Shown here one piece after another: positions 1-20,004 of a DNA stretch of 20,409 nucleotides (the stretch's first letter is position 1; every line of letters begins with the position of its first letter). Location of the stretch: positions 1 through 20,409 of the forward strand of contig JAVZYR010000012.1 in the NCBI GenBank assembly GCA_038999435.1, written 5' to 3'. The notes under the pieces were generated by a model. The model saw nothing but the letters and a program-made list of their open reading frames with translations. It was not told the DNA's origin and ran no database searches. The DNA is from Candidatus Aenigmatarchaeota archaeon (GTDB lineage Archaea; Aenigmatarchaeota; Aenigmatarchaeia; QMZP01). Both the position numbers and the translations under genes were made by a program.

Positions 1-415
1 TGGCTGTTAGCGGATCACCTTCAATGTCAGAATCATTTGCAAGTATGCCTGGTGCAGGAATGTTCAATGTCACATCTTCATCTGTGACATAGCTATCATC
101 TGATGCAACTGGTACATCGTTGACTGGATTGACTGTGATTGTAACAACTGCAGGGCTGCTGTTTGTTTGGCCATCATTTGCAACGTATGTAAAGCTGTCA
201 GTGCCATTCCAGTTTGCAGCTGGTGTGTATGTAAATGAGCCATCTGCATTTAGCACGAGGACACCATTTGTCACATCGCTAACAAGTATGGCTGTTAGCG
301 GATCACCTTCAATGTCAGAATCATTTGCAAGTATGCCTGGTGCAGGAATGTTCAATGTCACATCTTCATCTGTGACATAGCTATCATCTGATGCAACTGG
401 TACATCGTTGACTGG
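1..415. repeat. Intragenic tandem repeat, period 288 bp (96 aa), copies nucleotide-identical
   Basis: Positions 1-127 match 289-415 exactly. 128-415 is one full unit and the next copy is cut by the window edge. Confidence 0.95.
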
Positions 416-1498
416 TAAAACAATTATAGTTACATTCTGTGAAGCTGACAGATTTCCTGTATCTGTAACAGTAAATGTTACTGTCTCCTGTCCATTCCAA
501 TTAGGTTGAGCAGAAAAGTTTGCAACATGAGTTACAGGATCTATATTAATGATAGTATTATTATTTCCTGACACTGACCATGTCAGCGCAGACTCTGGGT
601 CTTCATCTACAACATAATCATCAAGATTAAGTGATGTTGAGCTATCTTCAAGAAATGTTATATTTATAGGTAGGTCTAAAATAGGTGGATTGTTAACTAT
701 AACTCCTGGAACTGTTACATTATCCTTGGTTAGATTTTGCGTTATTGACATAGCGCATTTATCATCTATAGATTCTGCTATTACTTGTATCGAATATACA
801 CCGGCAGTTATTGGAACCCATTCAAATATGAAATTCTTTGCCTTATCCTCTCTTATCAATTTTGTTTTGGTATTTGTCCATACAAGTTGCTTTGATTGGT
901 CATATATGTTCAAGGTCACACTGACATTTGCAGAAAAGTATTTATCAATTAAGTTATGGCCCACATAATGTTTAAGATCAGCTGCAGGTGTTATCGATGT
1001 ATTTGGTGCATCAGAAATCGGCGATTTTATCCTCACTTTAATATTGGCAGATTGACCAACTGTTATATTTGAAGGTATTACTAAATTACTTATTTTTGCT
1101 CTACAATATGGATACTTTGTAAATGTTTCAGTAGATTCATTTGATCCATTGATAGCTGGCTTCCACCACATCTCCTGCCTGACATAGCCAGGAGAGAACC
1201 AATAAGTAGCGTAGCCATATTTAGGTGCCTGCGAACCTGAACAGTAATGAACAGTTATTTTATTTGTGTCTGAATGTTTATCCTGAACTTTTTCGCCTAA
1301 TGTAGCGCAATAAGGGCTTGTACACTCAAAAACTAGTGCCCTTATACCACTTACATTTTGACCAGTCTCATTTTTCCATATAGTTGTATAATTATACCAG
1401 TTTTCAACCGGACATGACAAAACTGCATTTACAGGGCTAACTAAAATTAACAACAGCGCAAGCATTACCAAGCCCGATGCAAATATTTTCTGGTTCAT
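1..1498 (-). CDS. Secreted/surface protein with tandem cadherin-like (Big_9 / tandem-95) Ig repeats; 3' end lies outside the window
   Basis: Absent from the ORF track because it runs off the left edge. Manual translation from ATG 1498 is open to position 1: signal peptide MNQKIFASGLVMLALLLILVSPVNA, a Cys-containing N-terminal domain, then NNPPILDLP..FLEDS and VNDVPVASDDSYVTDEDVTLNIPAPGILANDSDIEGDPLTA..LNADGSFTYTPAANWNGTDSFTY repeats. GGTGA RBS at 1503-1507. Confidence 0.9.
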   Translation of the reverse strand, partial: MNQKIFASGLVMLALLLILVSPVNAVLSCPVENWYNYTTIWKNETGQNVSGIRALVFECTSPYCATLGEKVQDKHSDTNKITVHYCSGSQAPKYGYATYWFSPGYVRQEMWWKPAINGSNESTETFTKYPYCRAKISNLVIPSNITVGQSANIKVRIKSPISDAPNTSITPAADLKHYVGHNLIDKYFSANVSVTLNIYDQSKQLVWTNTKTKLIREDKAKNFIFEWVPITAGVYSIQVIAESIDDKCAMSITQNLTKDNVTVPGVIVNNPPILDLPINITFLEDSSTSLNLDDYVVDEDPESALTWSVSGNNNTIINIDPVTHVANFSAQPNWNGQETVTFTVTDTGNLSASQNVTIIVLPVNDVPVASDDSYVTDEDVTLNIPAPGILANDSDIEGDPLTAILVSDVTNGVLVLNADGSFTYTPAANWNGTDSFTYVANDGQTNSSPAVVTITVNPVNDVPVASDDSYVTDEDVTLNIPAPGILANDSDIEGDPLTA

Positions 1499-1562: not shown

Positions 1563-4500
1563 TCATGGTGCTGGAACACCTCCTGTTGTAGGTCCGGGTG
1601 GACCGTTAGGAACACCTCCTGGTGTAGGTCCGGGTGGGATTACTCCAGTCGGAGGAAGACCTTCTATTGCGCCACCGCCTTCTGCAGCTTGTAAACCTAA
1701 AGATTTTATCAATCCTAAAACTGATGCCCTTTGTGAGAGCCATGTCAAACCCATCTTAAGTTTTTCGTTTTCATTCATCCAATTATCCTCAAATCCTGGA
1801 TATGTGAAAGGATTGTTGCCATTTTCATCTTCTTCGTTATTACTGTCTGATGTTTTTTGATTTTGGTCACTATTTTGCTCATTATTTATTGTGGTTAAAT
1901 ACCATCTTTTTTCCAATTCATTCAAGGCTGCATCATCTATCCTTCCACCAGGAAGCGCCTCATACCATCTTTCCCAAAAAGCTATATCGTTTGCAAGACT
2001 TGTTATTGCAAATAATCTGCCTTCTGGTGTATCTGCCCATGGTTTATACAAATCAATAAGTTCTGCACCAATTTTTGCAGCAAGCGCCTTATTTTGATTG
2101 TTCAAAATTGCAGGCCAATTGTTCCATTTATTATCTTTTGTTTTATCCTTAACCTCAATCTTGACCTTTTGACCATGTGGACTTATTCTAGTCCACTCAT
2201 TTTTCTTATAACCTTCTGCAAACTTTTTCATGTTCTGTTTCATCTCATCAAGCATTGTTAAGTATTCCTCTTTTGTATCAGGTAAGTTATAGCCCATATT
2301 TGTTGTCTCAGGTGCATAGTTTCTCAAAACTTTTCTCACAGGCTCTGATGGGATTTGCTCAGTATATCCAAAGTGCGGATTTGTAATACTTATCCATCTC
2401 TTGTTATAAGGTGCCTCAAATGAGTTTGATGTAACTCTCAGCACATCTGGCTTTCCATCCCCATTCTTATCCACTTCTTCTACTTTTTTAACATCAACAT
2501 GTTCTGGCTTTTCACCGTTTTTGAATTTTCTAACTTCAAAATTTAATTTTGTTGGGTCGGTGATTTGGTTTGTTGGTATTTCTGCAACAGCATATATGTA
2601 TGGCTCTTCATAATGTTTTGGAGTGCATTTCTGCTCCTCTGCCAAATATATATCTATATCCCAGTCTTTGCCCTGTTGGCTTTTTCTATCAATTTTAACA
2701 GGTTTGACTTCAATCCTTTCAAGATATTTTACTATTTCATCGCATGGCTCAATCTCTAAATCTTGCGTATACGTTTTGATTTTGTTTTCCAGTTTGATTT
2801 TGTCATCTTTGGACAATTTCTGTTTTATTCGTACTTGATATTTCTCGCCTTCATCAACCTTTTTATTGTCATTCAAATCTTCCCAGAGGAAAAGAGGTTC
2901 ATCGGCATCCCATTGGCCACTTCCGTTTTTATCTTCATATGTTATCTGCCTTGTTACGCCATATACATAACCACCAGGGCCCCAGCCACTGCCTTTTTCG
3001 TCAGAGCAGACAAATGGCAGGCTTTCAGGAGGCTGTTTCTCTGGTTTAATTTCAGGTTGCTTAGCAATCTCACAAAAAGGTTTAAGTTCTTCTGTGGTTA
3101 TTTTTCCATCTTTATTATCGTCTATTTGATTGAAAAGATTAGAATATTCTTGATAGGTAATTATGTAATCTTTATTTTCATCTGCCTTTTCGGCGAATTT
3201 ATCTAAATTTCCACAAGCAAATTTATCGTTGTTGTTATTACAATTTTTTGCTAAATTCCGTAAATTGGCTTCTATCCCAGGTGTTGTTTTGTAACAATTT
3301 AGCTCTGGACATAGGCTGCCACCAAGATATTCAACTTGACCAACATTTATGCCCAAAACCTTTGCAGCTTCATCAGGTCTTGGACATTTTTCATATTTTG
3401 GCCCAGGTTTTGTACTTGGTTCAAAAATTATTACACGTTTTTTGCATGCCTGCTTATATTCAGGTTTCAGTTTTTCGTAGATCTCATCAGGTATGTTAAG
3501 TTTTTGACCAGGATATATGAAATTGGGATCTTTAATCTCTGGATTTGCTTTTAACCAAGGTTCCATTTTTTCACCAACATTTCCCAGATTTACATCCTCG
3601 CCTGTGAGTGCTTCATGAATGCTTGAAAGCCAATTGTCAGGCAAAACATGTATCGCTGGTTTTCCATCTTCGCATACAAATTCTACATTATAATTTGGAA
3701 TTTTCTTCTTTTGTTGCTCTTCTTGTTTCTTTTGTTCTTGTTGTTTTAAGTTATCCACATAAGTTACACCAATTTCGCCTATTTTACCAAGATATTCGGC
3801 GAACTTATCAACAGAGCAAGAGAATTTTTGGGGCGAATATTTGTCCTTGTTCTCTTCTGTTGGTGTTGAACTTGCCTGTTGAACTGCCGTTTTTGAATTT
3901 TGTGTCTGTTCTGCTGCTTTCGCTTCAGGTATAAACACAGATAAAACTGAATTTTTATCTGCTTCTGCTTGCAAAATTTGAACATCAGCTGATTTATTTG
4001 CATTTTCTATTTGTTCCTTCCAAAGCAGAATATTTTTAACATATTTTTCAGTTTCGGCATTTGCGTTTTCAGGTGTTCCAGCATGATACGCTTTCAGAAC
4101 TTCCACGTCGCCCTTGTAGGTTTTAAACAAGTTACTAAGTATTTTGGCTGAACATTCTGCATTTTTCTCCCAATTGTATAAATCGTTTTCATTTAAATCA
4201 CAAGAGGTAGATCCTGTTGCAGGCAATATCTGCCCCAAACCTATTGCTCCTTTTTTTGATTTTGCATTCGGGTTAAAACCTGATTCATGATATATAAGGG
4301 CTACAAACAAATCCTCATCAATGCCATATTTTTTAGCAATTTCAGAAATTTTGCCCAAATCAACACCGTGCTTTTCTGCAGCCTTTTTTATTTCGTCTGG
4401 ATATGATTTCAAATTATTATTTTGAAAATTTGGATAAGCATTATCATCATTACTAACAAAATTATTATTTTGTTCTGATGATGATTCGGGATAAGATATG

Positions 4501-5153
4501 TAAACCTTGTTTATATCATTTATATTATCTGATGCTTTCGCTTTAAATCCACCCAAAAATCCCCCGAAAGCTATACCAAGACCTAAAACAGGAAGTGCGT
4601 ATTTTGCATAATTTACAAATTTTCTAAAAGTAGAAGGTTGATAAACTTCTTTTTCAATTTTCTTTTCACATTTAGCTTCAATTCCTAAGATAGATAATAT
4701 TTCACCTTCAGCTTCCTTATACATCTGATCATATCCTCGAAAAAGACCCTCAAGCTCTATCTTTTTGCATTCATCCAATGCCTCTTTGTATACTTCAAGC
4801 AATTTTGGTGCAACTTCATCATTAAAATATGTATCCCAATCTCTTTTTTCAGATTTTATTATAAAGTCTTTTGATGAAATCACAGGTCTCATTAATGCCC
4901 ATTTTACAAAATAAGGAAGACAATTAAACTTGAGCTTCTGATCAATAATATCATAAAAACCAGCATAATATATCTCGTCTTCACTTACCCCTTGTTCTCT
5001 CAAACGTTGTTCTTCAGCTTTTAAAAGATTTTTTTCTGCAATTTTCCTAATTTGAACAATCTCCTCTTGACTTCTATATATATCTAAGTTGAAGAATCTG
5101 TACGTATCTAAATTGAGGTTGTCTTTCTCTGTCTTGGAATTTTCTATTGTCAT
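1563..5153 (-). CDS. Single-pass membrane protein with lytic transglycosylase (SLT, GH23-like) domain, LysM domain, EF-hand-like Ca2+ loops and Pro/Gly-rich tail
   Basis: Hydrophobic helix YALPVLGLGIAFGGFLGGF at about aa 185-203. SLT motifs KYGID..LFVALIYHESGFNPNAKSKKGAIGLGQILPAT..LYNWEKN..AYHAG..ETEKYV (catalytic-position Glu290, nt 4284-4286). LysM IHVLPDNWLSSI..ANPEIKDPNFIYPGQKLNIP (about nt 3488-3653). Loops DENKDYIITYQE and DDNKDGKITTEE. AGGTGA RBS at 5160-5165 and ATGA overlap support the start. Confidence 0.88.
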   Translation of the reverse strand: MTIENSKTEKDNLNLDTYRFFNLDIYRSQEEIVQIRKIAEKNLLKAEEQRLREQGVSEDEIYYAGFYDIIDQKLKFNCLPYFVKWALMRPVISSKDFIIKSEKRDWDTYFNDEVAPKLLEVYKEALDECKKIELEGLFRGYDQMYKEAEGEILSILGIEAKCEKKIEKEVYQPSTFRKFVNYAKYALPVLGLGIAFGGFLGGFKAKASDNINDINKVYISYPESSSEQNNNFVSNDDNAYPNFQNNNLKSYPDEIKKAAEKHGVDLGKISEIAKKYGIDEDLFVALIYHESGFNPNAKSKKGAIGLGQILPATGSTSCDLNENDLYNWEKNAECSAKILSNLFKTYKGDVEVLKAYHAGTPENANAETEKYVKNILLWKEQIENANKSADVQILQAEADKNSVLSVFIPEAKAAEQTQNSKTAVQQASSTPTEENKDKYSPQKFSCSVDKFAEYLGKIGEIGVTYVDNLKQQEQKKQEEQQKKKIPNYNVEFVCEDGKPAIHVLPDNWLSSIHEALTGEDVNLGNVGEKMEPWLKANPEIKDPNFIYPGQKLNIPDEIYEKLKPEYKQACKKRVIIFEPSTKPGPKYEKCPRPDEAAKVLGINVGQVEYLGGSLCPELNCYKTTPGIEANLRNLAKNCNNNNDKFACGNLDKFAEKADENKDYIITYQEYSNLFNQIDDNKDGKITTEELKPFCEIAKQPEIKPEKQPPESLPFVCSDEKGSGWGPGGYVYGVTRQITYEDKNGSGQWDADEPLFLWEDLNDNKKVDEGEKYQVRIKQKLSKDDKIKLENKIKTYTQDLEIEPCDEIVKYLERIEVKPVKIDRKSQQGKDWDIDIYLAEEQKCTPKHYEEPYIYAVAEIPTNQITDPTKLNFEVRKFKNGEKPEHVDVKKVEEVDKNGDGKPDVLRVTSNSFEAPYNKRWISITNPHFGYTEQIPSEPVRKVLRNYAPETTNMGYNLPDTKEEYLTMLDEMKQNMKKFAEGYKKNEWTRISPHGQKVKIEVKDKTKDNKWNNWPAILNNQNKALAAKIGAELIDLYKPWADTPEGRLFAITSLANDIAFWERWYEALPGGRIDDAALNELEKRWYLTTINNEQNSDQNQKTSDSNNEEDENGNNPFTYPGFEDNWMNENEKLKMGLTWLSQRASVLGLIKSLGLQAAEGGGAIEGLPPTGVIPPGPTPGGVPNGPPGPTTGGVPAP
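1573..1637. repeat. Short direct repeat (29 bp x2, period 36 bp, 1 mismatch) encoding the PPGPT(P/T)GGVP tail
   Basis: ggaacacctcctgttgtaggtccgggtgg (1573-1601) versus ggaacacctcctggtgtaggtccgggtgg (1609-1637). Confidence 0.9.
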
Positions 5154-5647
5154 TTCTGCTCACCTGTCTTATCCGCATATTTTTTCTTTAATCCTTCGAA
5201 ACAGCTTCTGGCCTCATCAAGCTGCCCTGAGTTTAAATAATTGATACAATTATAAACTGTCTCAAGGTCTTGTTCATATCCTTCGAATTTTTTAACACAC
5301 TCATTACATGCTGTTAAATTTTCATTACAGCTGTTAAGTTTTGTGGAATAGTTTTCAATTGACTTTTCCACGTAATGTTTTTCGAAATATTTCCCGCCAA
5401 AGAACCCACCTGCACCACCAATTATTAAGCCTACAATGCCTGTGGCTACATAATAAGGCCATTTGCGTTTGTACGGAGATTTTTGATCTTTTTGAGAGCT
5501 GTCTTCTTTTTTGCTCTCACCAATTATATTTGTTTCAGTTCCAGGATTTTTGCGTCCGATAGCTGGTTCTCCAACTTCAGATTTTCCAATGTCAAACTCA
5601 AATTCTTCTCCTACTTGCCCATCTTCTTTCTTATTTTCATCTGTCAT
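5150..5647 (-). CDS. Hypothetical single-pass membrane protein with Gly-rich TM helix and Cys-containing helical C-terminal part
   Basis: Charged N-terminus, KRKW then YYVATGIVGLIIGGAGGFFGG, then CNENLTACNEC and C..C segments. Stop overlaps the next start (ATGA at 5150-5153). TATA box upstream. Confidence 0.85.
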   Translation of the reverse strand: MTDENKKEDGQVGEEFEFDIGKSEVGEPAIGRKNPGTETNIIGESKKEDSSQKDQKSPYKRKWPYYVATGIVGLIIGGAGGFFGGKYFEKHYVEKSIENYSTKLNSCNENLTACNECVKKFEGYEQDLETVYNCINYLNSGQLDEARSCFEGLKKKYADKTGEQK

Positions 5648-5703: not shown

Positions 5704-6387
5704 TCAAATGAACATTATCACCAAAACAAGCAGCGGCTGATGAACAAGATATACAAAAAGCGATCTTTTACCCAATGTGCAAAGAGATTTGAGGATGCGG
5801 TTTTTCTTGATATGCGGTAGGTCGAATCGCCTTTTGTATTTAGGATAAAGTATAAAGCCAAAGAGCATGCCTAAAAGCACCAAACTAAACCACGGTATGA
5901 GAGGAAAATAATCTGCTGTTGCAAATCTCTGTGGAACAAGCCATAAGAGCCAGGGCCCGATATCATGAAGACTAAAATATGGCAATACAAACAAAGGTAG
6001 AAAGATTATGCTTTTAGGGCCAATCTTCAAAAAAGGATAACTGATAATCACAGAAAAGCCGATAAAATGAAGTATGCCAAATATCACAGGCATGTCAGGT
6101 ATTATTAGCATTGTGATCCCAGTTATCAACAATCCCCAACCAAATATCCTTAGCCCACGCCTCAAATATTTTCCAAAGCATGCATGATTTTGTATTTCTG
6201 CCCTCATATAACTAAGAGACAGGGAAAGCCCAACTAAAAAGATAAACATTCCGGCAATGATAAATGCATATAATGGATTTGGCGCAGAATAGCCTTTGAG
6301 TATGCTCAGGTCAAGTAAAAAATGGTAAAAAATCATTGCTATGATAGCAATGCCTCGCAGCGCATCAACCTCCCAAAATCGTTCCAT
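5704..6387 (-). CDS. DUF1624 / heparan-alpha-glucosaminide N-acetyltransferase-like membrane protein
   Basis: RFWEVDALRGIAI..MIFYH, FIFLVGLSL, FGILHFIG, DYFPLIPW and GKRSLFVYLVHQP motifs in a polytopic hydrophobic protein. Confidence 0.85.
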   Translation of the reverse strand: MERFWEVDALRGIAIIAMIFYHFLLDLSILKGYSAPNPLYAFIIAGMFIFLVGLSLSLSYMRAEIQNHACFGKYLRRGLRIFGWGLLITGITMLIIPDMPVIFGILHFIGFSVIISYPFLKIGPKSIIFLPLFVLPYFSLHDIGPWLLWLVPQRFATADYFPLIPWFSLVLLGMLFGFILYPKYKRRFDLPHIKKNRILKSLCTLGKRSLFVYLVHQPLLVLVIMFI

Positions 6388-11729: not shown

Positions 11730-12443
11730 CTATTTTCTAAACCAATAAAACAATAACACAACAATTATTAAAACCCCAAGACCTGCCACAAAATAGCTTT
11801 GCATTTCTATAAAATAATTAACACCTTCTTTGACCTCATCGCCTCTCCATTGCAATATCCAGCCATCAAGTGACACGGCATAATCAAAGTCTATTTTGTT
11901 GCCAGATATCTGAACTGGTACAGCCCCAACCCGTGTATAATTGAGCTTTGATATATCAGAAAATAGTATCTTTCCATAATAGCCTAATGGCTTGTCAGAC
12001 ATCTTTAACAAAACCCTATTTCCTGCCCATATCTTTGGTTTTCCAGGCAAATCAGAGATCTGCTCAAATGCTGTGAGATTATCGAGAAGAGGACATAAAC
12101 TGTCTTTTTTTGATTCTAAAACAGACTGAAGATTTTCGATAATAGGATTATCACCAACAATGTATCTATCATCGAATATGAGCATTGGTATGCCAATTGT
12201 GCCAATTTTGTATTTTTCAGAATATGCAAGCAACAATCCTGAGTTCTCCGGTTGCTGATAAATTTCATATTCTATTATCACAAGGTCTGTGTTGTTTTTT
12301 AGTATTTCATTAAATAAGAATGGGTCTGTCTTTGCACAATGCGGACATCCTATGCCTGTGAAATATACCACACAATTATGTGCATAGACTGATGGAAATA
12401 TCAATATCGTTAGAACAAGCAAAATTAATACTCTACTTTTCAT
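11730..12443 (-). CDS. Exported, C-terminally anchored thioredoxin/glutaredoxin-fold protein
   Basis: Signal peptide ending VYA, YFTGIGCPHC active site, GIPMLIF cis-Pro loop, VGD motif, C-terminal TM ending FRK. ATGA overlap with the S8 gene. Confidence 0.85.
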   Translation of the reverse strand: MKSRVLILLVLTILIFPSVYAHNCVVYFTGIGCPHCAKTDPFLFNEILKNNTDLVIIEYEIYQQPENSGLLLAYSEKYKIGTIGIPMLIFDDRYIVGDNPIIENLQSVLESKKDSLCPLLDNLTAFEQISDLPGKPKIWAGNRVLLKMSDKPLGYYGKILFSDISKLNYTRVGAVPVQISGNKIDFDYAVSLDGWILQWRGDEVKEGVNYFIEMQSYFVAGLGVLIIVVLLFYWFRK

Positions 12444-15400
12444 ATAATTTTTTGTTTTAATATCTTATATTTTCCCAAAAACAAAATTGTAAATATTGCA
12501 ATAAATATAACTGTTAAAACAATCCATGCTATACTTGGTATTGCAGGTGTAGGTGAAGGTTCTGTTACATTTTCTGTTACGTTCTCTGTAATTGGTAATT
12601 TTGGTATGGACTGGAAAATCATAATCGCACCTGTTTCAAAAACAGATTTGAGATTTATATCTATATCAGCAATCCCATCATTATCGATATCTATCTGATT
12701 TTCTCCAAAAGATAGTATGTAGCTCTGTCCATCAAACTCTATGGTTACTGTTTGATTGCTAACAGCTATCAAGGTCATGTTTGTATCATTGAACACCACA
12801 ATATCAGATATATTTAGATATATTTCCTTTCCTTGAATGTATGAAAATTCGTATATTTTTGGAACAACAATGACTTCCTCTATTTCTTCTGTTGGTGGTA
12901 TGTAGCCACCTCCTGGAGCAGCTGGCCTCTGATAAGATGGTTCTGTCACTGTTATGTTTTTTGTTATGTTTGCAATCGAGCCATCCGAATCCCTTATATT
13001 TAAAATAACCGTATATGTACCTGAATTTTGATATGTATGTTGAACCGTTTCATTGCTCGTATGCAATAAGGAGCCGTCACCAAAATTCCACGAATATACA
13101 AAAGGCTTATCCCAACCTGTTGAATTAGAAGCATTAAATATCACAATTTGACCTTTTTGTGGTGATTGTGGATGCCAGTAAAAATCAGGTATTGGTATAC
13201 TATCTAAAATCGTTATGTTTTGACAAAAAACAGAACTAAAATTATAAACATCTGTCACATTCAAACAGATTGTGTATGTGCCATTTTGACTATAAACATG
13301 ACTAACATTTTGTTCAAAAGAAAAATTGCCATCACCAAGATTCCATTGCCATGTGGCATTATAAAAAATTTTTGAAAGGTCTGTGAAATTCACAGGCTTG
13401 CCTTCTTCTGGCGTCAAAGGTGTCCATGTAAAGCTTGCATTCGGTGTCAGATATATGTATATCCTGTTTGCTGCTTCTTCACGTCCATAGTTTCTATTCA
13501 GCAAAATCTGGGTTTGATTTTCTATACCTTTGTAATTTGCAACCACTTTGTGTGGCGTTAGATTGTGCTGTACATTTTCATTATCTATATAATATTGAGT
13601 CAAAAACCATCCTACTGACCCTGTATCATCTGTGATCAACTCAGATAAAGGATCAGTTTTGTTGAATTCGTATACTGTTACTGTTGCATTTTCTATAGGA
13701 TTTCCAAGATGGTCTTTAATCCATACTGTAAGGGTCCAGTTTATCACAAGTCTTCTATCATTTACCGTATCATAGATCTGATTTGTTTCTGAAATGTTGG
13801 AATTATAATTAATATCTGCAAGAATTATGCCATACCCAGAATTTTCTAAAATATTACCATCTATAAATGCTAGTTCATTACCCCAACCTTTCCCAAAAAT
13901 AGATATATTTGCATTGTTGATTTTATTGCCAATTACTGTTGTATTTTTGAAGAATCTTATCCCATAATCACAATTTGATAAATTGTTATTCAATAATGTA
14001 TTATTTCCATATGTAACATAATTTAAATCTATACAGGAGCCTGAATTATCAATTATATTATCTTTGATTGTATTATTGGAACCATATCTAAATGTTCTTA
14101 TTCCGCTGAAAGAAGAGTTGTATATTTTATTCCCGATTACCGTTGAATTACTATCAATCTCTATGGCAGTCCAACTATCATTGATTGTATTATTGAAAAT
14201 AAATGCAGATGACGTATAAACATCAATTGCAATTCGACTACCAGAGAGGTAACCATAAAATAAATTATGTGAGATATTTTTTATTCCAGAATAATATCCA
14301 TAGAAAACTGAATTTTCAAATATATTATAAAAAACATCCTGTCCTATAACACTTGAATTAACAAACATGTTATTGACAATCCTATCATATTTACCTTGTA
14401 ATTGAGCAGAGATAAAAGTATTATTATATATTGTACCGTTATCTGTCAGTAAAGTTGTCCCGATGATTATATTTTCAGCTATTAAGCCTTCCAAAGCCCT
14501 GAGATTAAGATAACCACTATAGGTTGCATTGTTACCGATAAATGTTATATTATGTGGCGTAGGTATGACATACGAAACTCCTACACTTACATTCTCTAAC
14601 GTGTTATTAATAATAGATATATTTTTAGCTCCCCAATCTATCTTAAATTGGCCTTGGCCTATGTTTCGCCACAGCCTATTATTGATAAAAATATTATATG
14701 TCCCTGTTGTTGAAAGGAGATAAGGATGGTTATAAATGTTGCAATTTTTCAATGTGACATTAGTCCCATCCACCCAAAATATTACAGGTTCCCATGGGTC
14801 ATTAGGGTCAAAAATTGCAGTTATATTTGAAAAATCACAATCTACATCCAAATTATTTCCATTTATATTCACAAACCTGTCTGAATAGACTTTTGCAGTA
14901 AGGTAATAGTTTCCTCTGCATATTCTTTTCGATGTATTTGTACCCACGATTGATATAGGTCCAAGCCTTATGCACTGTGAAATATTAAGAATAATCGGTT
15001 CAGAGCTTCTTATTGTTCTTTCATGGTCTATCAAAAATATTTCATCATAGTTTCCTATGAATTCTTTATATGCACCAATTTTGTAGGATGTTTTGTTTTG
15101 CAATGTTCCGTTTGAAATAATCCATTCTTCAAGCACAAATGGCTGGGTCCATCCTGATTGATTTGTAAAACCAGACCATTCCAAAGCATCATCAAAATAT
15201 ACCGTAACACTTGCATTATCAACAGGGCCTTCATTTGAGATTACATTTACCTGAACATCCCAAGCTTTTGATACATCGATGATGTTATCATAAAATACAT
15301 TCTCATTGTATATATCTTCAGAGAGATTTGAATTTACAGCCCGGATACCATAATCTAAGTTCTCAAATACATTTTGACTCGCATTCAACTCACCATCAAA

Positions 15401-17875
15401 AACATATACACCAATCTCTCCTGAACTTATATTGCAATTTTGTACTTTTACATTTCCACTGGCCCATATAGCTTTTTTATAATCATTTATAATGCAGTTT
15501 GATATATCTCCACCATTTTCAGAATATATCAATGTACCATTTGAAAATTCATTCCATATCATCGAGCCATGGCAATCAACCGCAACAGATGTTGTATTGA
15601 AAACTATCACAGGATAGTCAAGTTTCATAGACAGATGATAGCCCAAGCCATCAAGCTCCCATAAACCAGCTGAATTTATATAAAAGCTTACCTCGCTATC
15701 ATTAAAATTGTGCAGCGCATCTGTTAGATTTGAATAATTACAACCGCTGTCACACACTGTTATAATCATTGGCTTTACATCAGTATAGCCATTTTTATTT
15801 TGACTTTCTGCACTCGTGCTGTTACAATAAACCATAAATGAATATATGCCTGGCCTTTCTATCGCAAGCTCATATTTCCATAAACCAGAAGTATAAACCA
15901 TTGTATAGTTTGTATTATTAAACTCAAGCTGACATTCAGCATCCTCCACAGGCGTTGAATTTATACGATAGCTGTAGTTTGCATAGAAAGGTGTTAGACC
16001 TCCAACACTTCCACCAGGGCTCCAAACATCCAAAATAGAATTATCTATTGTTGTATAACTAGAAAATCCTGATATGTTAAATGCGAAATTTCCTTCATCG
16101 TATGAAATTGGAACACAATCAATGCAAACCTGTCCATCTTTTAGTATAACTGGCATAAATTGGAATGGCAGACCAAAAAATGAAAGTTCAGAGCTTTGAT
16201 TAAATTTTTGGCATTCTGACCTGTTCAAAAGCGTGATGTTATTATACTTAACTATAAAACATGATTCGAGCCCATCTAAATTTGGCAACAAATCATATCT
16301 GACCTTTCCAAATGTGTTGAAAAATGCTTTAGCCTCATAATCTATTTTTAACATTATATCAGAAGCGATATCAAACTGGACCCTTGGAAACATCAAACCG
16401 GTTCGTGCCATAGAGTAGTTATCAGGAACAGGCTTTCCTGTTTTCTTCAAAAGGTCTCTCAATTCATCCGGTGTCAATGTTCTATTATTCATCAATCTGC
16501 TTTGCTGTTGTAATATGGCAGCAACACCTGCTATATGAGGTGCTGCAAAAGATGTACCTGAGCCTGTTCCATATGTGTTTGGCATTTTTGTTGAATTTAT
16601 AGCATTACCTGGAGCAACGATATCAAGCATAGTTGGATGGACATTACTGTAATATGTCACTATATCATCTTTATATGAAGCTGCTACTGATGTTACATTT
16701 GCAAGGCATGCAGGATTTGATAAGCCATTTATAGAATAGCTATTTCCAGATGCAGCATCTATGAATATTCCATCAGCATGAGCAGCATCTACTGCTGGGG
16801 TTATTGTTGTATTTGTTGATGCTGCACACGATTCCCTGTCTGGATACACGTTCCATGTTCCAAGGCTTATTGTTATGATATCAATATTATATTCGTCTTT
16901 ATGCTGTCGACACCAGTCTATGCCTTTTGCAATATCTGATGTATAGCATTGCCCCCCTGAATTACAAACTTTTACAGCAACTATGGATGCTGCAGGTGCT
17001 ACACCTTTTATACCACCGTTTGCTGCAACAATACCTGCAACGCGTGTACCATGCCCATTATCATCTGTTGCATTCTCATCCTCTTCCTGGCCATTTGGGC
17101 AATACCCAACCCCATTACCTGGGATTGAATCATCAGCAAAACAGTGTTGTGCTATTATCCTATTTGCAAAGTCAGGATGCGGATATACACCTGTATCTAT
17201 CACACATACAGAAATATTTTGACCAGTTAGGTTTTGGCCATCTATAACCTTTTTATGGACAATATCAGCTCCTATTAGCGGCAGTGTATCTTGAAGCATT
17301 ATGTGCATTGCTTCATCAAGCTCAATCCTCACATCTTTCAAATTTGCTAAGTTTTTTATGTTCCTATTTTCTACCAGACCTATGTATGCATTTAGATAAT
17401 CAGAATATACAAAATTACTTAAACCTGTTTGCTTGATTTCATCGAAATCAGCAGTTGTTTTTAACACGATTCTTCTGACATCCTCTTTTGGGCTTATGTT
17501 TATTTCAAATTCTTCTTGACCTTTTAACTCATCTAAAACCCACTCTAACCTGTCAATGAGCCCGTTATCATTTTTATCAACATATCTTATGCCTTCTCTC
17601 AAAGAAATATTGTACCATTTCAGCTCTATGTCTTGTCTGAAACTTTCCGGAATGTCAGCCCATATTCTTAAATCCTTTTTTATTATCGAAGAATAAACTC
17701 TTATTTTGTTACCCTCTCTTTCTATACCAGGGGCTGACATGTCATGTGTCAAAACACCACACTTTAACTCCTCTTTTCCTGCCAGTAATCTGCCATCAAA
17801 TGTGCTTAACAAAAATATGGATATAAAGAAACACAACAAAAGAATTAAAGTAATTATTTTATAGGAATTTCTCAT
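12440..17875 (-). CDS. Large membrane-anchored S8 (subtilisin-like) serine protease with beta-helix (NosD/CASH-like) regions, Ig-like modules and two PKD domains
   Basis: Triad VIDTG (D227), NGHGTRVAG (H275), SGTSFAAPHIAG (S442), oxyanion ASGN. I.NN.I-type beta-helix repeats. PKD motifs WQWNLGDG..HVY..GTY and YSWNFGDG..HTY..GTY. N-terminal signal/anchor and C-terminal TM with a basic tail. Confidence 0.92.
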   Translation of the reverse strand: MRNSYKIITLILLLCFFISIFLLSTFDGRLLAGKEELKCGVLTHDMSAPGIEREGNKIRVYSSIIKKDLRIWADIPESFRQDIELKWYNISLREGIRYVDKNDNGLIDRLEWVLDELKGQEEFEINISPKEDVRRIVLKTTADFDEIKQTGLSNFVYSDYLNAYIGLVENRNIKNLANLKDVRIELDEAMHIMLQDTLPLIGADIVHKKVIDGQNLTGQNISVCVIDTGVYPHPDFANRIIAQHCFADDSIPGNGVGYCPNGQEEDENATDDNGHGTRVAGIVAANGGIKGVAPAASIVAVKVCNSGGQCYTSDIAKGIDWCRQHKDEYNIDIITISLGTWNVYPDRESCAASTNTTITPAVDAAHADGIFIDAASGNSYSINGLSNPACLANVTSVAASYKDDIVTYYSNVHPTMLDIVAPGNAINSTKMPNTYGTGSGTSFAAPHIAGVAAILQQQSRLMNNRTLTPDELRDLLKKTGKPVPDNYSMARTGLMFPRVQFDIASDIMLKIDYEAKAFFNTFGKVRYDLLPNLDGLESCFIVKYNNITLLNRSECQKFNQSSELSFFGLPFQFMPVILKDGQVCIDCVPISYDEGNFAFNISGFSSYTTIDNSILDVWSPGGSVGGLTPFYANYSYRINSTPVEDAECQLEFNNTNYTMVYTSGLWKYELAIERPGIYSFMVYCNSTSAESQNKNGYTDVKPMIITVCDSGCNYSNLTDALHNFNDSEVSFYINSAGLWELDGLGYHLSMKLDYPVIVFNTTSVAVDCHGSMIWNEFSNGTLIYSENGGDISNCIINDYKKAIWASGNVKVQNCNISSGEIGVYVFDGELNASQNVFENLDYGIRAVNSNLSEDIYNENVFYDNIIDVSKAWDVQVNVISNEGPVDNASVTVYFDDALEWSGFTNQSGWTQPFVLEEWIISNGTLQNKTSYKIGAYKEFIGNYDEIFLIDHERTIRSSEPIILNISQCIRLGPISIVGTNTSKRICRGNYYLTAKVYSDRFVNINGNNLDVDCDFSNITAIFDPNDPWEPVIFWVDGTNVTLKNCNIYNHPYLLSTTGTYNIFINNRLWRNIGQGQFKIDWGAKNISIINNTLENVSVGVSYVIPTPHNITFIGNNATYSGYLNLRALEGLIAENIIIGTTLLTDNGTIYNNTFISAQLQGKYDRIVNNMFVNSSVIGQDVFYNIFENSVFYGYYSGIKNISHNLFYGYLSGSRIAIDVYTSSAFIFNNTINDSWTAIEIDSNSTVIGNKIYNSSFSGIRTFRYGSNNTIKDNIIDNSGSCIDLNYVTYGNNTLLNNNLSNCDYGIRFFKNTTVIGNKINNANISIFGKGWGNELAFIDGNILENSGYGIILADINYNSNISETNQIYDTVNDRRLVINWTLTVWIKDHLGNPIENATVTVYEFNKTDPLSELITDDTGSVGWFLTQYYIDNENVQHNLTPHKVVANYKGIENQTQILLNRNYGREEAANRIYIYLTPNASFTWTPLTPEEGKPVNFTDLSKIFYNATWQWNLGDGNFSFEQNVSHVYSQNGTYTICLNVTDVYNFSSVFCQNITILDSIPIPDFYWHPQSPQKGQIVIFNASNSTGWDKPFVYSWNFGDGSLLHTSNETVQHTYQNSGTYTVILNIRDSDGSIANITKNITVTEPSYQRPAAPGGGYIPPTEEIEEVIVVPKIYEFSYIQGKEIYLNISDIVVFNDTNMTLIAVSNQTVTIEFDGQSYILSFGENQIDIDNDGIADIDINLKSVFETGAIMIFQSIPKLPITENVTENVTEPSPTPAIPSIAWIVLTVIFIAIFTILFLGKYKILKQKII

Positions 17876-17937: not shown

Positions 17938-20004
17938 ATGATCACTTCTGTTAGAAAACGTGATGGTAAAATAGTCCCTTTCGAGCCAAAAAGGATTGAA
18001 TATGCAATACATCGTGCACTTTTTGATGCAAAAATTAGAGATGGAAAAAACGCAAAAAATCTTGCTAAAAAGGTTGTCGATATTTTGGAAAAGAAAAATA
18101 TAGAAATACCAAGTGTTGAATTAATACAAGATGTTGTTGAAAGTGTTTTAACAAAATGGAAACCAAAAGTTGGAAAAATATATGGAGATTATAGGCAGAA
18201 AAAGGCAGAGATAAGAGAAGCAAGAGAAAAATACGGCATTGAAGCAAAGCTTAGCTATAATGCAATGGTTGTGCTTGAACAAAGATATCTGCTTAGAGAT
18301 GAAAAAGGACAGATAATCGAAAAACCTGGTGATATGTTCAGGCGTGTTGCTCGGGCAGTGGCTGATGTAGAAAAAAAATATGGCGGTGATACGAAAAAGG
18401 TTGAAGAAGAATTTTTCAACATGATGTCAAGGTTAGAATTCCTGCCCAATAGCCCTACGCTTTTCAATGCTGGTGCTCCACTTGGTCAGCTCTCAGCATG
18501 TTTTGTCCTGCCTGTTGATGATTCTCTGGAATCTATATTTGAGGCTGCAAAAAGGCTTGCAATCATAGAGCAAAGTGGTGGTGGTGTTGGTTTTTCATTT
18601 TCCCGTTTAAGACCAAAAGGTGATATCGTCAGGTCAACGATGGGTGTAGCATCAGGACCTGTGAGCTTCATGAGGGTCTTTGACACCATAACTGATGTTA
18701 TAAAAGCAGGTGGAAAAAGGAGGGGGGCAATGATGGGTGTACTAAGTGTACATCATCCTGATATTGAAGAGTTTATAGAAGCAAAATCTGATCCAACCAT
18801 GCTTAAAAATTTCAATCTTTCTGTTGCTGTGAGTGATAAGTTCATGCAGGCCCTAACAAAGAATGGGGAATATGATATTATAAACCCGAGGACAAATCAG
18901 GTTGTGAAAAGATTGCCAGCAAAAAAGATATGGGATATGATTGTTAAGAGTGCATGGGAAAGAGGCGACCCAGGCCTACTTTTCATAGACGAGATAAATA
19001 GAAAAAATCCTACAAAACACATTGGGCAGATAGAAGGAACAAATCCATGTGGTGAGCTTCCTCTTCATCCCTATGAATCTTGCAACCTTGGCTCAATAAA
19101 CCTAACAAAAATGCTTGAAAAGAAAGGAGAAAAATATGAGATAGATTGGGAGAAATTGTCAAAAACAGTGAAAATGGCTGTAAGATTTTTGGACGATGTT
19201 ATTGATGCCAACAGATATCCATTTCCTGAGATTGAAAGGATGACAAAAGCAAATAGAAGGATAGGGCTTGGGGTTATGGGTTTTGCAGACATGTTATTCC
19301 TTATGAAAATACCCTATGACTCAGAAAAGGCTATTGAATTAGCTGAAAGGTTGATGAAATTCATCTCAACAGAAGCAAGGAAAGAATCTGAAAAACTTGG
19401 TGAGGAAAGAGGTTCATTTCCTAATTTTAAAGGCAGTTTATGGGAACAGAGTGGCTACAAGACAATGAGAAATGCCACAACTACAGTCATTGCACCTACA
19501 GGTTCGATAAGTATTATAAGTGGGTGTAGTTCAGGTATAGAGCCTGTATTTGCCTTAAGCTATGTTAGAAAAATTTTAGGTGGTAGAGAGCTACTCGAAT
19601 CGAATTGGATATTTGAAAGGGTTGCTAAAGAAAGGGGATTTTATTCAGCAGAACTTATGTTTAAAATAGCGCAAAGTGGTTCTATACAAGGTTTTAAAGA
19701 AATACCTGCTGATGTGAGAAGGGTATTTAAAACTGCTTTGGATATAAAACCAGCATGGCATGTCCGTGTGCAAGCTGCTTTTCAAAAGTATGTTGACAGC
19801 TCTGTAAGCAAAACAATAAACTTTCCACATTCGGCAAAACCTGCTGATTTTAGCAAAGCATTTATGCTTGCATACAAATCTGGATGCAAAGGCATAACAG
19901 CATATAGATATGGTTCAAAACCTGAACAAGTCTTCTACATAAAACCTATGATAAAAGCAGAAGCTGAATATGCTGGAGGATGTCCAGGGATCTGTCCTTT
20001 GTGA
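17938..20004 (+). CDS. nrdJ: Class II (adenosylcobalamin-dependent) ribonucleotide reductase with N-terminal ATP cone
   Basis: ATP cone [74 protein letters not shown]-terminal Cys pair CPGIC. No radical-generating nrdB nearby, and an adenosyltransferase follows. Confidence 0.93.

Follow-up and report, generated by a model that had tools for sequence, protein, structure and literature searches.

Why would an archaeon carry a surface protein with a lytic transglycosylase domain, and on which glycan would that domain act? The question is raised by a large open reading frame (ORF), P0001, in the 549-kb genome of a hot-spring Aenigmatarchaeota (DPANN) archaeon. The window, by which we mean the whole stretch of DNA analyzed (20,409 nucleotides), is one entire 20-kb contig of a genome bin that has 30 contigs and is 86% complete. 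An earlier note, made from the sequence alone, had proposed that P0001 is machinery for attacking or attaching to bacteria.

Architecture of P0001

The reading frame of 1,196 codons was found at exactly the coordinates given in the earlier note, on the minus strand. Its parts are as follows.

1563..5153, minus strand: large ORF P0001, 1,196 aa plus stop
4602..5153, minus strand: N-terminal part, aa 1 to 184, predicted cytoplasmic, no known family
4545..4601, minus strand: single hydrophobic helix (putative signal-anchor), aa 185 to 203, top Kyte-Doolittle window (1.61)
3933..4412, minus strand: SLT (family 1 lytic transglycosylase) domain, Pfam aa 270 to 374, modelled at about aa 248 to 407
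3486..3665, minus strand: LysM-like segment, aa ~497 to 556, its two helices separated by a longer loop
3204..3386, minus strand: Cys-rich module, aa 590 to 650 (CPxPxEAAKVLGxNxGQVxYLG ... CYKT), conserved with P0004, no family
3087..3191, minus strand: EF-hand pair, two 12-residue DxNxD...E loops, aa 658 to 669 and 678 to 689
1764..2561, minus strand: conserved C-terminal domain, aa 865 to 1130, 42 to 44% identity to P0004 and P0005
1566..1763, minus strand: hydrophobic/amphipathic helix (aa 1134 to 1157) and Pro/Gly-rich tail (...GVPAP), near-invariant in three orthologues

The segment at aa 185 to 203 is the sole strongly hydrophobic 19-residue window of P0001 on the Kyte-Doolittle scale, in line with the N-terminal domain of about 184 residues and the one transmembrane helix read earlier; the count of about 640 residues beyond the LysM-like piece was also right (aa 557 to 1196). 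P0001 has no N-terminal signal and no lipobox. Judged by where its one helix lies and by the charges on either side, P0001 would be a type II (N-in) membrane-anchored surface protein. A Pfam search showed no family in aa 1 to 184, and this part shares 28% identity with the N-terminal part of P0004, the longer of the two relatives described below.

The SLT domain was recognized by Pfam PF01464 (CAZy GH23) with 77.1 bits against a cutoff of 21.3 (E 1e-21) and with 82.2 bits in a six-frame search of the genome. Its motifs lie where the earlier note had read them, HES at 289 to 291 (with Glu290), GLGQ at 305 to 308, and AYHAG at 355 to 359. The lysozyme fold that it had expected was recovered by structure prediction: the AlphaFold2 model, with pLDDT of at least 91 for aa 248 to 397, has a lysozyme-like all-alpha fold, and Foldseek gave 31 matches at an E value of 0.001 or lower, all matches listed being lytic transglycosylases (Slt, MltC, MltE, Slt70, MltF, and MltD among them). 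The PDB matches include 5ohu (E 3e-6), 4c5f, 1qte, 2y8p, 4p0g, and 8rhf. The catalytic Glu of MltC in 4c5f, which is Gln in the mutant chain 4cfo, falls opposite Glu290 when the sequences are aligned. In the alignment of SLT domains, E290, G305, Q308, Y356, and G359 are the consensus in all 31 rows and S291 in 30 of them. P0001 departs from the lytic transglycosylase motifs GLMQ and AYNAG at two positions: GLGQ lacks the Met seen in 28 of the 31 rows, and AYHAG has His357, found only in P0001, where 30 rows have Asn. The closest relatives of the domain in sequence and in fold are all murein enzymes.

The LysM domain of the earlier note stands in part. Pfam PF01476 matches above its cutoff (22.3 bits versus 20.9), but only with the second half of the profile (positions 25 to 43 of 43, aa 535 to 555). 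It is the sole LysM match in the genome. The segment matches the SafA LysM (7r1l) with an E value of 7.7e-5, and 58 multi-LysM proteins match P0001 best here, a few of them across about 50 residues. The model shows strand-helix-helix-strand at aa ~498 to 546, with low pLDDT (50 to 67).

The EF-hand-type loops, the C-terminal domain, and the Pro/Gly tail go beyond what had been described earlier. The best Pfam model for the loops, EF-hand_5, scores 25.7 bits, just below its cutoff of 25.9, with the other EF-hand models also under threshold, and a sequence search gave five matches to the region; the pair is probably a Ca2+ site. The C-terminal domain has no relative beyond P0004 and P0005 among 1.84 billion representatives. 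A model of aa 700 to 1196 from a three-row alignment was unusable (mean pLDDT, 36.2), and no fold search was made from it. No other ORF of the genome has a tail of this kind.

Relatives of the scaffold and neighboring genes

The same 1.84 billion representatives hold two relatives of the scaffold, P0004 (1,069 aa) and P0005 (a 573-aa fragment). P0004, the only full-length orthologue, has no SLT domain, and when the SLT alignment was compared with it as a profile, no match emerged (probability, 0.3%). The enzyme is therefore dispensable for the core role of the scaffold. A word-index search with the whole of P0001 returned the query itself only, and ESM Atlas searches with aa 700 to 1196 and with P0004 gave no usable match. 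Two genes flank P0001.

5150..5647, minus strand: small upstream gene P0002, 165 aa, its stop overlapping the start of P0001 (ATGA)
2..1498, minus strand: downstream gene for a secreted cadherin-like/Big_9 adhesin, running off the contig

P0002 begins with an acidic part, continues with a single Gly-rich hydrophobic helix, and ends in about 80 aa that are helical and rich in Cys; some 30 nt ahead of its ATG is a TTTAAATA box. It matches no Pfam, NCBIfam, or PADLOC family, and a single-sequence search of 40 relatives gave no hit; a homologue was reached only through its position on metagenome contig L074, directly upstream of the scaffold gene of a sister lineage (26% identity over 107 aa, pairwise E 7e-7). 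The partner gene of the earlier note is thus kept beside the scaffold in that lineage, but the scaffold there has no SLT domain, which makes P0002 a candidate partner of the scaffold and not of the enzyme domain. A complex prediction for aa 1 to 260 of P0001 with P0002 scored 0.00, and nothing was drawn from it. The downstream protein matches Pfam Big_9 (E 2.3e-36) and Cadherin_4 (E 3.6e-36). Its gene is preceded by a TATA-like box and a GGTGA of its own, and it also follows the scaffold gene in a genome of the same genus, G001. The upstream membrane protein and the downstream adhesin are each kept beside the scaffold, on one sister-lineage contig each.

The host genome and the search for wall genes

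The host genome is archaeal, as the earlier note had supposed of a DPANN-like organism: the archaeal model gives its 16S gene 1346.6 bits and the bacterial one 1050.1 bits, and a fragment from the same genus carries the NCBI name Candidatus Aenigmatarchaeota. The contig fits the rest of the bin in tetranucleotide composition (correlation, 0.973), and the ribonucleotide reductase (RNR) that it encodes shares 78% identity with the one in the same-genus genome. Searches for three peptidoglycan synthesis families, Mur_ligase_M, Transpeptidase (PBP), and FtsW/RodA, turned up none here, agreeing with the earlier expectation, while control genomes gave matches; since the genome is 86% complete, we read missing families as not found rather than absent. 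The hydrolase families Amidase_2, NlpC/P60, and S66 were not found in the genome either, which gives no hint of a larger gene set for degrading walls or using muropeptides. The bin holds a second SLT gene, adjoining a PcrB-family gene. PADLOC gave only a Csm3 match at chance level (E 0.004).

Overlapping pieces of metagenome contigs tile the P0001 ORF, and one of them bridges the upstream edge of the SLT domain. Among the pieces listed (77 others lie outside the listing), none bridges the downstream edge, and short stretches are uncovered; no single public contig runs across the whole ORF. The metagenome contigs show strain-level variation in the gene region. No RNA run containing the stretch was listed among public runs.

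Distribution and ancestry of SLT domains

SLT domains were found in 86 of the 301 genomes sampled from the phylum, which makes the trait common in a third DPANN phylum, and in 28 of 61 relatives of this genome. In the 21 relatives' proteins examined, all but 2 of those with SLT contain anchor-like hydrophobic segments or polytopic ones. Among species genomes, the nearest SLT domains that were fetched, at 32 to 48% identity, are 32 bacterial ones, obtained with peptide patterns from P0001 and hence biased towards it, and 1 from Pacearchaeota. The domain tree (54 rows, 100 columns) is mostly without resolution. P0001 falls among the bacterial rows, adjoining one from Cloacimonadota (SH-aLRT 88, unstarred), and the archaeal relatives require at least five label changes, of which well-supported branches force only one. 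Because the bacterial rows are biased and the tree is poorly resolved, we claim neither a donor nor a number of acquisitions. A possible counterpart of the P0001 domain is a free-standing SLT protein of 191 aa encoded by G001, with 32% identity to it (E 3e-15) and two Cys positions in common; the tree does not join the two.

Proposed function and alternatives

Taken as a whole, the observations are best explained if P0001 cuts the peptidoglycan of a bacterial cell touched by the archaeon, to which we give somewhat better than an even chance. Since the cell appears to make no peptidoglycan itself, the enzyme would most likely act on that of a bacterial cell. The foreign substrate of the earlier note remains the most economical reading of an archaeal genome in which the synthesis families were not found and of a domain with this fold and catalytic Glu; the surface exposure and topology, the activity, the substrate, and the bacterial partner or prey as target are what we infer from them. 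The SLT domain would be located just outside the membrane, followed by the LysM-like piece, the EF-hand pair, and the lineage-specific C-terminal domain. It would cut the MurNAc-GlcNAc bond in the peptidoglycan of the bacterial partner while the LysM-like piece holds the glycan strand, and the local opening of the wall would permit attachment or access, or muropeptides would be released as food. The SLT domain may thus be a bacterial-type module plugged into a preexisting contact protein. It stands about 45 residues from the membrane, with about 800 residues lying farther out; if the cell has an S-layer, this closeness would count against its reaching the wall of another cell.

Several other readings were weighed. 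The domain could work on, or merely bind, another glycan (chitin-like GlcNAc polymers, the envelope of an archaeal host, or an environmental polysaccharide), P0001 then serving mainly as a lectin or adhesin towards an archaeal host; we regard this as unlikely, although several observations suit it. According to a statement in PMC12352652, chitin-type glycans are also within the range of LysM and GH23 folds. The Foldseek matches 4hjy, 8rhi, and 7lam were solved with chito-oligosaccharides bound, His357 occupies a near-invariant Asn position, and the scaffold has an adhesin and a small membrane protein as neighbors and no SLT domain in the sister lineage. To our knowledge, all DPANN archaea cultured so far have archaeal hosts, and we know of no Aenigmatarchaeota with a known host. 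However, the catalytic Glu-Ser and most motif residues of the substrate groove are as in murein transglycosylases, to which the nearest relatives in sequence and fold belong, and the lytic transglycosylase mechanism requires the C6 hydroxyl of MurNAc.

It is less probable still that the SLT domain was acquired recently, is perhaps decaying, and now does little or nothing in a scaffold that works without it. The frame is open across 1,196 codons, P0001 keeps the catalytic dyad along with five further invariant residues, the domain models with very high confidence, and the occurrence of SLT in the phylum argues for selection in the lineage. These stand against the lack of the domain in P0004, the substitutions at two near-invariant positions, and the strain-level variation of the gene region, all of which decay would accommodate. 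Equally speculative is the idea that P0002, the scaffold, and the adhesin form a host-contact apparatus, with insertion of the SLT domain in the lineage of this genome marking a switch or widening of partners from archaea to bacteria within the genus. If it is true, the presence or absence of SLT would be a genomic marker of host domain in DPANN archaea.

We think it very unlikely that P0001 is a diffusible or contact-dependent antibacterial weapon serving competition or defense instead of a host or prey relation. Peptidoglycan hydrolases of a haloarchaeon were shown experimentally to kill bacteria, as the abstract of PMC12352652 reports. P0001, however, is predicted to be membrane anchored, not secreted, sits in a module with an adhesin, and belongs to a genome whose size suggests dependence on other cells; the biochemical mechanism would be the same as in the preferred reading, the cutting of bacterial peptidoglycan, and only the ecological purpose would differ. 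That the contig is bacterial or chimeric and mis-binned, its SLT domain coming from an ordinary bacterium, is largely refuted and scarcely credible: the window is a whole contig of a 30-contig bin and no single public contig spans the ORF, but composition ties it to the bin and RNR to the genus, overlapping pieces tile the ORF, one of them bridging the upstream SLT edge, the bin's second SLT gene adjoins a PcrB-family gene, and the scaffold and adhesin are syntenic in the independent assembly G001, with a protein NCBI-named Aenigmatarchaeota.

Wall-cutting enzymes in wall-less cells are among the few genomic clues that some DPANN archaea interact with bacteria instead of archaea, and aa 208 to 560 of P0001 make a compact, expressible test object. 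The SLT domain behaves as a swappable module, present in the contact protein of one species and missing from the sister-lineage orthologue.

Comparison with known systems

The novelty of a DPANN attack on bacterial walls was overstated in the earlier note. Large murein transglycosylase proteins of DPANN archaea, seen as binding or degrading bacterial walls, have been published (Castelle 2021, PMC8204110; Vigneron et al. 2022, PMC9723730, the latter on GH23 genes). P0001 accords with an idea thus already published, in which archaea of this kind hold on to bacteria, break through their walls, or use them as food, and it raises no new question. What is particular to P0001 is an SLT domain in a lineage-specific scaffold with two relatives, the full-length one of which has none. 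The main text of a comparative genomic study of Aenigmarchaeota (PMC8407114) does not contain murein, lytic, lysozyme, cell wall, GH23, or bacterial host.

The hydrolases of Strock et al. 2025 (PMC12352652) are likewise archaeal, target a polymer made only by bacteria, and combine a catalytic with a peptidoglycan-binding domain. The enzymes tested there, unlike P0001, are secreted, haloarchaeal, and homologues of M23/zoocin A; PF01464, SLT, and GH23 do not occur in its main text.

Of the solved structures, MltC of Escherichia coli (PDB 4c5f, 4cfo, and 9vi7) matches P0001 best in sequence (E 1.2e-7 to 3.6e-6), and the two have only the catalytic domain in common. Orthology to MltC was rejected, the NCBIfam MltC model scoring 33 bits against a cutoff of 375.

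MltD, the membrane-bound lytic murein transglycosylase D of Gram-negative bacteria (PDB 8rhe, 8rhf, and 8rhi), resembles P0001 in having a membrane-tethered SLT domain followed by LysM, with a fold match and a weak sequence match. MltD, however, is a lipoprotein with at least two complete LysM domains and works on the wall of its own cell, whereas P0001, from a wall-less archaeon, has a putative signal-anchor preceded by 184 predicted cytoplasmic residues and a single, atypical LysM-like piece with about 640 residues beyond it. The lack of a lipobox and of detected families for synthesis of its own wall also sets P0001 apart from an MltD-type identity.

Closest in kind are the proteins of fam00969, a family that Castelle et al. 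(PMC8204110) call specific to Woese- and Pacearchaeota, the comparison being by description and not by sequence. P0001 differs in coming from Aenigmatarchaeota and in having a scaffold with two relatives only. Like them, it belongs to a peptidoglycan-less archaeon, has a proposed role in the binding or degradation of bacterial walls, and is a large surface protein in which a single SLT/GH23 domain is set in sequence that has no annotation.

Domain layout of P0001

The window is one complete contig (C12, 20,409 bases) of the 549-kb, 30-contig genome bin G000, and the frame of its large ORF is open across 1196 codons, as an earlier note had claimed. Strong hydrophobicity is confined to a single 19-residue segment of the product, P0001 (aa 185-203), so that a 184-residue N-terminal part stands ahead of one signal-anchor-like helix, the arrangement which that note had described. 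The motifs of the SLT domain also lie where it had placed them. The genes and P0001 features concerned are the following.

5150-5647, minus strand: small gene, 165-aa product (P0002)
1563-5153, minus strand: large ORF, 1196-aa product (P0001)
2-1498, minus strand: cadherin-like/Big_9 adhesin gene
P0001 aa 270-374: SLT domain (Pfam E value of 1e-21, 77.1 bits against a cutoff of 21.3)
P0001 aa 289-291, 305-308, and 355-359: HES, GLGQ, and AYHAG motifs
P0001 aa 658-669 and 678-689: two canonical DxNxD...E loops

The LysM domain of the earlier note stood only in part: the Pfam match (aa 535-555) just passes the threshold (22.3 bits versus 20.9), but it covers only profile positions 25 to 43 of 43. 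The structure model gives this region a strand-helix-helix-strand order with a pLDDT of just 50 to 67, and it is the best-matching region for 58 LysM-repeat proteins in an exhaustive search of 1.84 billion representatives. It is probably LysM-like. Around aa 671-697, several EF-hand models match slightly below the Pfam threshold.

Fold and catalytic motifs of the SLT domain

MltC enzymes give the best sequence matches to proteins of solved structure (9vi7, E value of 1.2e-7; 4c5f, E value of 1.4e-6), and Glu290 of P0001 falls on the position occupied by Gln in 4cfo, an inactive MltC mutant chain. A structure model of aa 208-560 was built from a 31-row alignment, including 27 SLT stretches from species genomes (27 of 33 loci retrieved) and 3 from relatives. 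The pLDDT was at least 91 across aa 248-397, and a Foldseek search of the PDB gave 31 matches at an E value of ≤0.001. All those listed are lytic transglycosylases, namely Slt of P. aeruginosa (5ohu, E value of 3e-6), MltC, MltE, Slt70, MltF, and MltD. The enzyme fold is thus supported by the predicted structure, and the analysis shows an intact-looking murein-type transglycosylase domain on a one-helix tether. In the alignment, whose SLT rows are a biased sample because they were fetched via peptide patterns taken from P0001, E290, G305, Q308, Y356, and G359 are shared by all 31 rows and S291 by 30, while P0001 departs from the near-invariant GLMQ by Gly for Met (Met in 28 of 31 rows) and from AYNAG by His for Asn (Asn in 30 of 31).

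The SLT domain as a module

We searched the 1.84 billion representatives with P0001 aa 401-1196 as the query (E value of ≤0.001). Of the 66 proteins found, one was the query itself, and in 63 the match was confined to the LysM-like piece (58 proteins) or the EF-hand region (5 proteins). The C-terminal half of P0001 had two matches only: P0004, a full-length orthologue of 1069 aa from a sister lineage (44% identity), encoded on an 85-kb contig, and P0005, a 573-aa fragment in the same-genus genome G001. P0004 and P0001 have in common the helix and, before it, the N-terminal part (28% identity), a LysM-like stretch in degenerate form, the EF-hand-like region, a Cys-rich CPxPxEAAKVLG module, the C-terminal domain, and a Pro/Gly tail that hardly varies. 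No SLT domain was found in P0004 by Pfam at an E value of ≤1 or by profile comparison (probability of 0.3%). The domain was therefore either inserted in the G000 lineage or lost in the sister lineage; two lineages only do not polarize the change. G001 has a free-standing SLT protein of 191 aa (32% identity to the P0001 domain, E value of 3e-15). The SLT phylogeny raised in the earlier note yielded a domain tree, but its resolution was too poor to join this protein with the P0001 domain. These comparisons show P0001 to be a singleton architecture, in which SLT behaves as a module of a contact protein specific to the lineage.

The end of P0001 (aa 1131-1196; window 1566-1763) is a hydrophobic/amphipathic helix followed by a Pro/Gly-rich tail ending in GVPAP. 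It is almost invariant in the three orthologues, whereas the remainder is only about 35 to 44% identical, and no other ORF of G000 has such a tail. Helix and tail might together serve to sort or anchor the protein.

Neighboring genes

The adhesin gene lies downstream of the scaffold gene (that of P0001 and its orthologues) in G000 and likewise in G001. P0002 had no family match and, in a single-sequence search, no match in 40 relatives. On a metagenome contig with a P0004 allele, a gene for a 115-aa protein is located immediately upstream, overlapping the P0004 start. This protein is built like P0002, with a Gly-rich helix and then a Cys-rich helical part, and is 26% identical to it over 107 aa (pairwise E value of 7e-7). 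The adhesin and the small membrane protein therefore each accompany the scaffold on a single sister-lineage contig, a different one for each, and neither pairing depends on SLT.

Directly upstream of the three-gene unit (5704-6387, minus strand) is a gene for an HGSNAT_cat/acyltransferase-3 family membrane protein (E value of 3.2e-58), for which a link to glycan acetylation is conceivable. Farther along (12440-17875, minus strand) lies the gene for an 1811-aa protein in which a subtilase S8 domain is combined with a right-handed beta-helix and two PKD domains; this is another giant degradative protein, probably extracellular.

Host genome and population

The archaeal origin of the contig, on which the earlier note depended, is supported by a 16S gene on contig C8 of the bin (1346.6 bits with the archaeal model versus 1050.1 with the bacterial model), by a tetranucleotide correlation of 0.973 with the rest of the bin (0.833 to 0.997 for all contigs), by a ribonucleotide reductase 78% identical to a fragment in G001, and by the G001 scaffold fragment P0005, which carries the NCBI name "Candidatus Aenigmatarchaeota archaeon." About 30 nt upstream of the gene that opens the three-gene unit is a TTTAAATA box, and a second TATA-like box with GGTGA precedes the adhesin gene. 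Also in line with that note, searches of the 86%-complete genome gave no match for Mur_ligase_M, Transpeptidase, or FtsW/RodA; in 14 control genomes these families were detected in 12, 10, and 10, respectively.

The ribonucleotide reductase gene (17938-20004; class I/II-type) is uninterrupted in the window. It has separated piecewise matches in four relatives (G040:C24, G042:C72, G043:C7, and G012:C17), where the frames are much longer (up to 1700 aa), a pattern that inteins in these relatives would give.

Four public hot-spring metagenome runs, all from a single study, contain the window sequence, and the best of them may be the source sample. Contig pieces from the four runs tile the P0001 ORF with small gaps and strain-level variation. 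One piece bridges the upstream edge of SLT, and none among the matches listed bridges the downstream edge. In three of the four runs, contigs matching the upstream gene diverge from about position 5138 leftward, shortly after the large ORF begins, and the SLT-to-LysM region (3450-4450) is covered by many short pieces with variants, which suggests that more than one allele of this surface protein co-exists in the population.

Distribution of SLT proteins

The SLT family was detected in 28 of 61 genomes of relatives. By family, G000 excluded, it occurs in 17/36 genomes of the same family and in 8/9, 0/1, 0/5, 0/1, and 2/8 of the others. Across the phylum, 86 of 301 sampled genomes (49 of 151 genera) were positive, 83 above the curated cutoff, and the longest open frame holding SLT was 3646 aa; in the control set, 8 of 10 bacteria and none of 4 archaea were positive. 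We examined 21 proteins from the relatives and G000. SLT was the only confident catalytic domain in 20, and the 21st, the G001 scaffold fragment, had no domain match. Six SLT proteins (843 to 1520 aa) have at least four hydrophobic segments and SLT near the C terminus, while the remaining ones have a single N-terminal hydrophobic segment in all but two cases. Proteins of 1157 to 1520 aa in G009 (L026:5622-10181), G011 (L027:4519-8436), G048 (L028:4973-8443), and G045 (L029:1423-4992) have at least six hydrophobic segments mid-protein and SLT at the extreme C terminus, and two start with CxxC...CxxC. This polytopic-membrane-plus-SLT architecture looks recurrent among the relatives; we met no description of it in the parts of the literature covered.

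G000 has a second SLT gene on contig C26 (L004:1435-2109, minus strand), encoding 224 aa with an N-terminal hydrophobic helix (Pfam E value of 3.9e-15). It is flanked by a small multidrug-export-family gene and a PcrB-family (GGGP-synthase-type) gene, and its SLT is very divergent from that of P0001 (pairwise E value of 0.067).

Possible action on bacterial walls

An N-in topology of P0001 would place everything behind the helix outside: SLT, the LysM-like piece, the Ca2+ loops, and 14 Cys residues. SLT could then cleave peptidoglycan of a bacterium in contact with the cell, while the LysM-like piece would hold the glycan strand and the adhesin would provide the contact. The purpose might be attachment, access, feeding, or killing. 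Judged from sequence, such action on a bacterial wall is plausible, with several caveats. P0001 has two motif substitutions, GLGQ and AYHAG; SLT is dispensable in P0004; it lies near the membrane, and some 800 residues extend farther out; no further peptidoglycan-handling family (Amidase_2, Peptidase_S66, or NlpC/P60) was found in the 86%-complete genome; and chitin-type glycans are within reach of GH23 and LysM folds (PMC12352652).

Comparison with known systems

The wall-cutting reading of DPANN transglycosylase proteins is already published. Castelle et al. 2021 (PMC8204110) proposed bacterial-wall binding and degradation for large murein-transglycosylase proteins of DPANN, crediting Rinke 2013 and Castelle 2015 with earlier sightings. 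Vigneron et al. 2022 (PMC9723730) reported GH23 "large lytic murein transglycosylase" genes in Woesearchaeota and argued for predation on bacteria, and the same wall-degrading point has been made in print for further DPANN MAGs. Experiments by Strock et al. 2025 (PMC12352652) showed that other peptidoglycan hydrolases from archaea are lethal to a bacterium. Among the matches listed, no published title or abstract opening concerned an SLT protein of Aenigmarchaeota, and the principal comparative study of the phylum (PMC8407114) has no wall-enzyme vocabulary in its main text. The architecture, in which the earlier note had in part located the novelty, is a singleton; the ecological reading is in print in kind, and P0001 belongs to a known kind. 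It differs from bacterial MltD, whose lipoprotein and own-wall features it does not share, and resembles it in the membrane tether and in the order of SLT, then a LysM-like piece.
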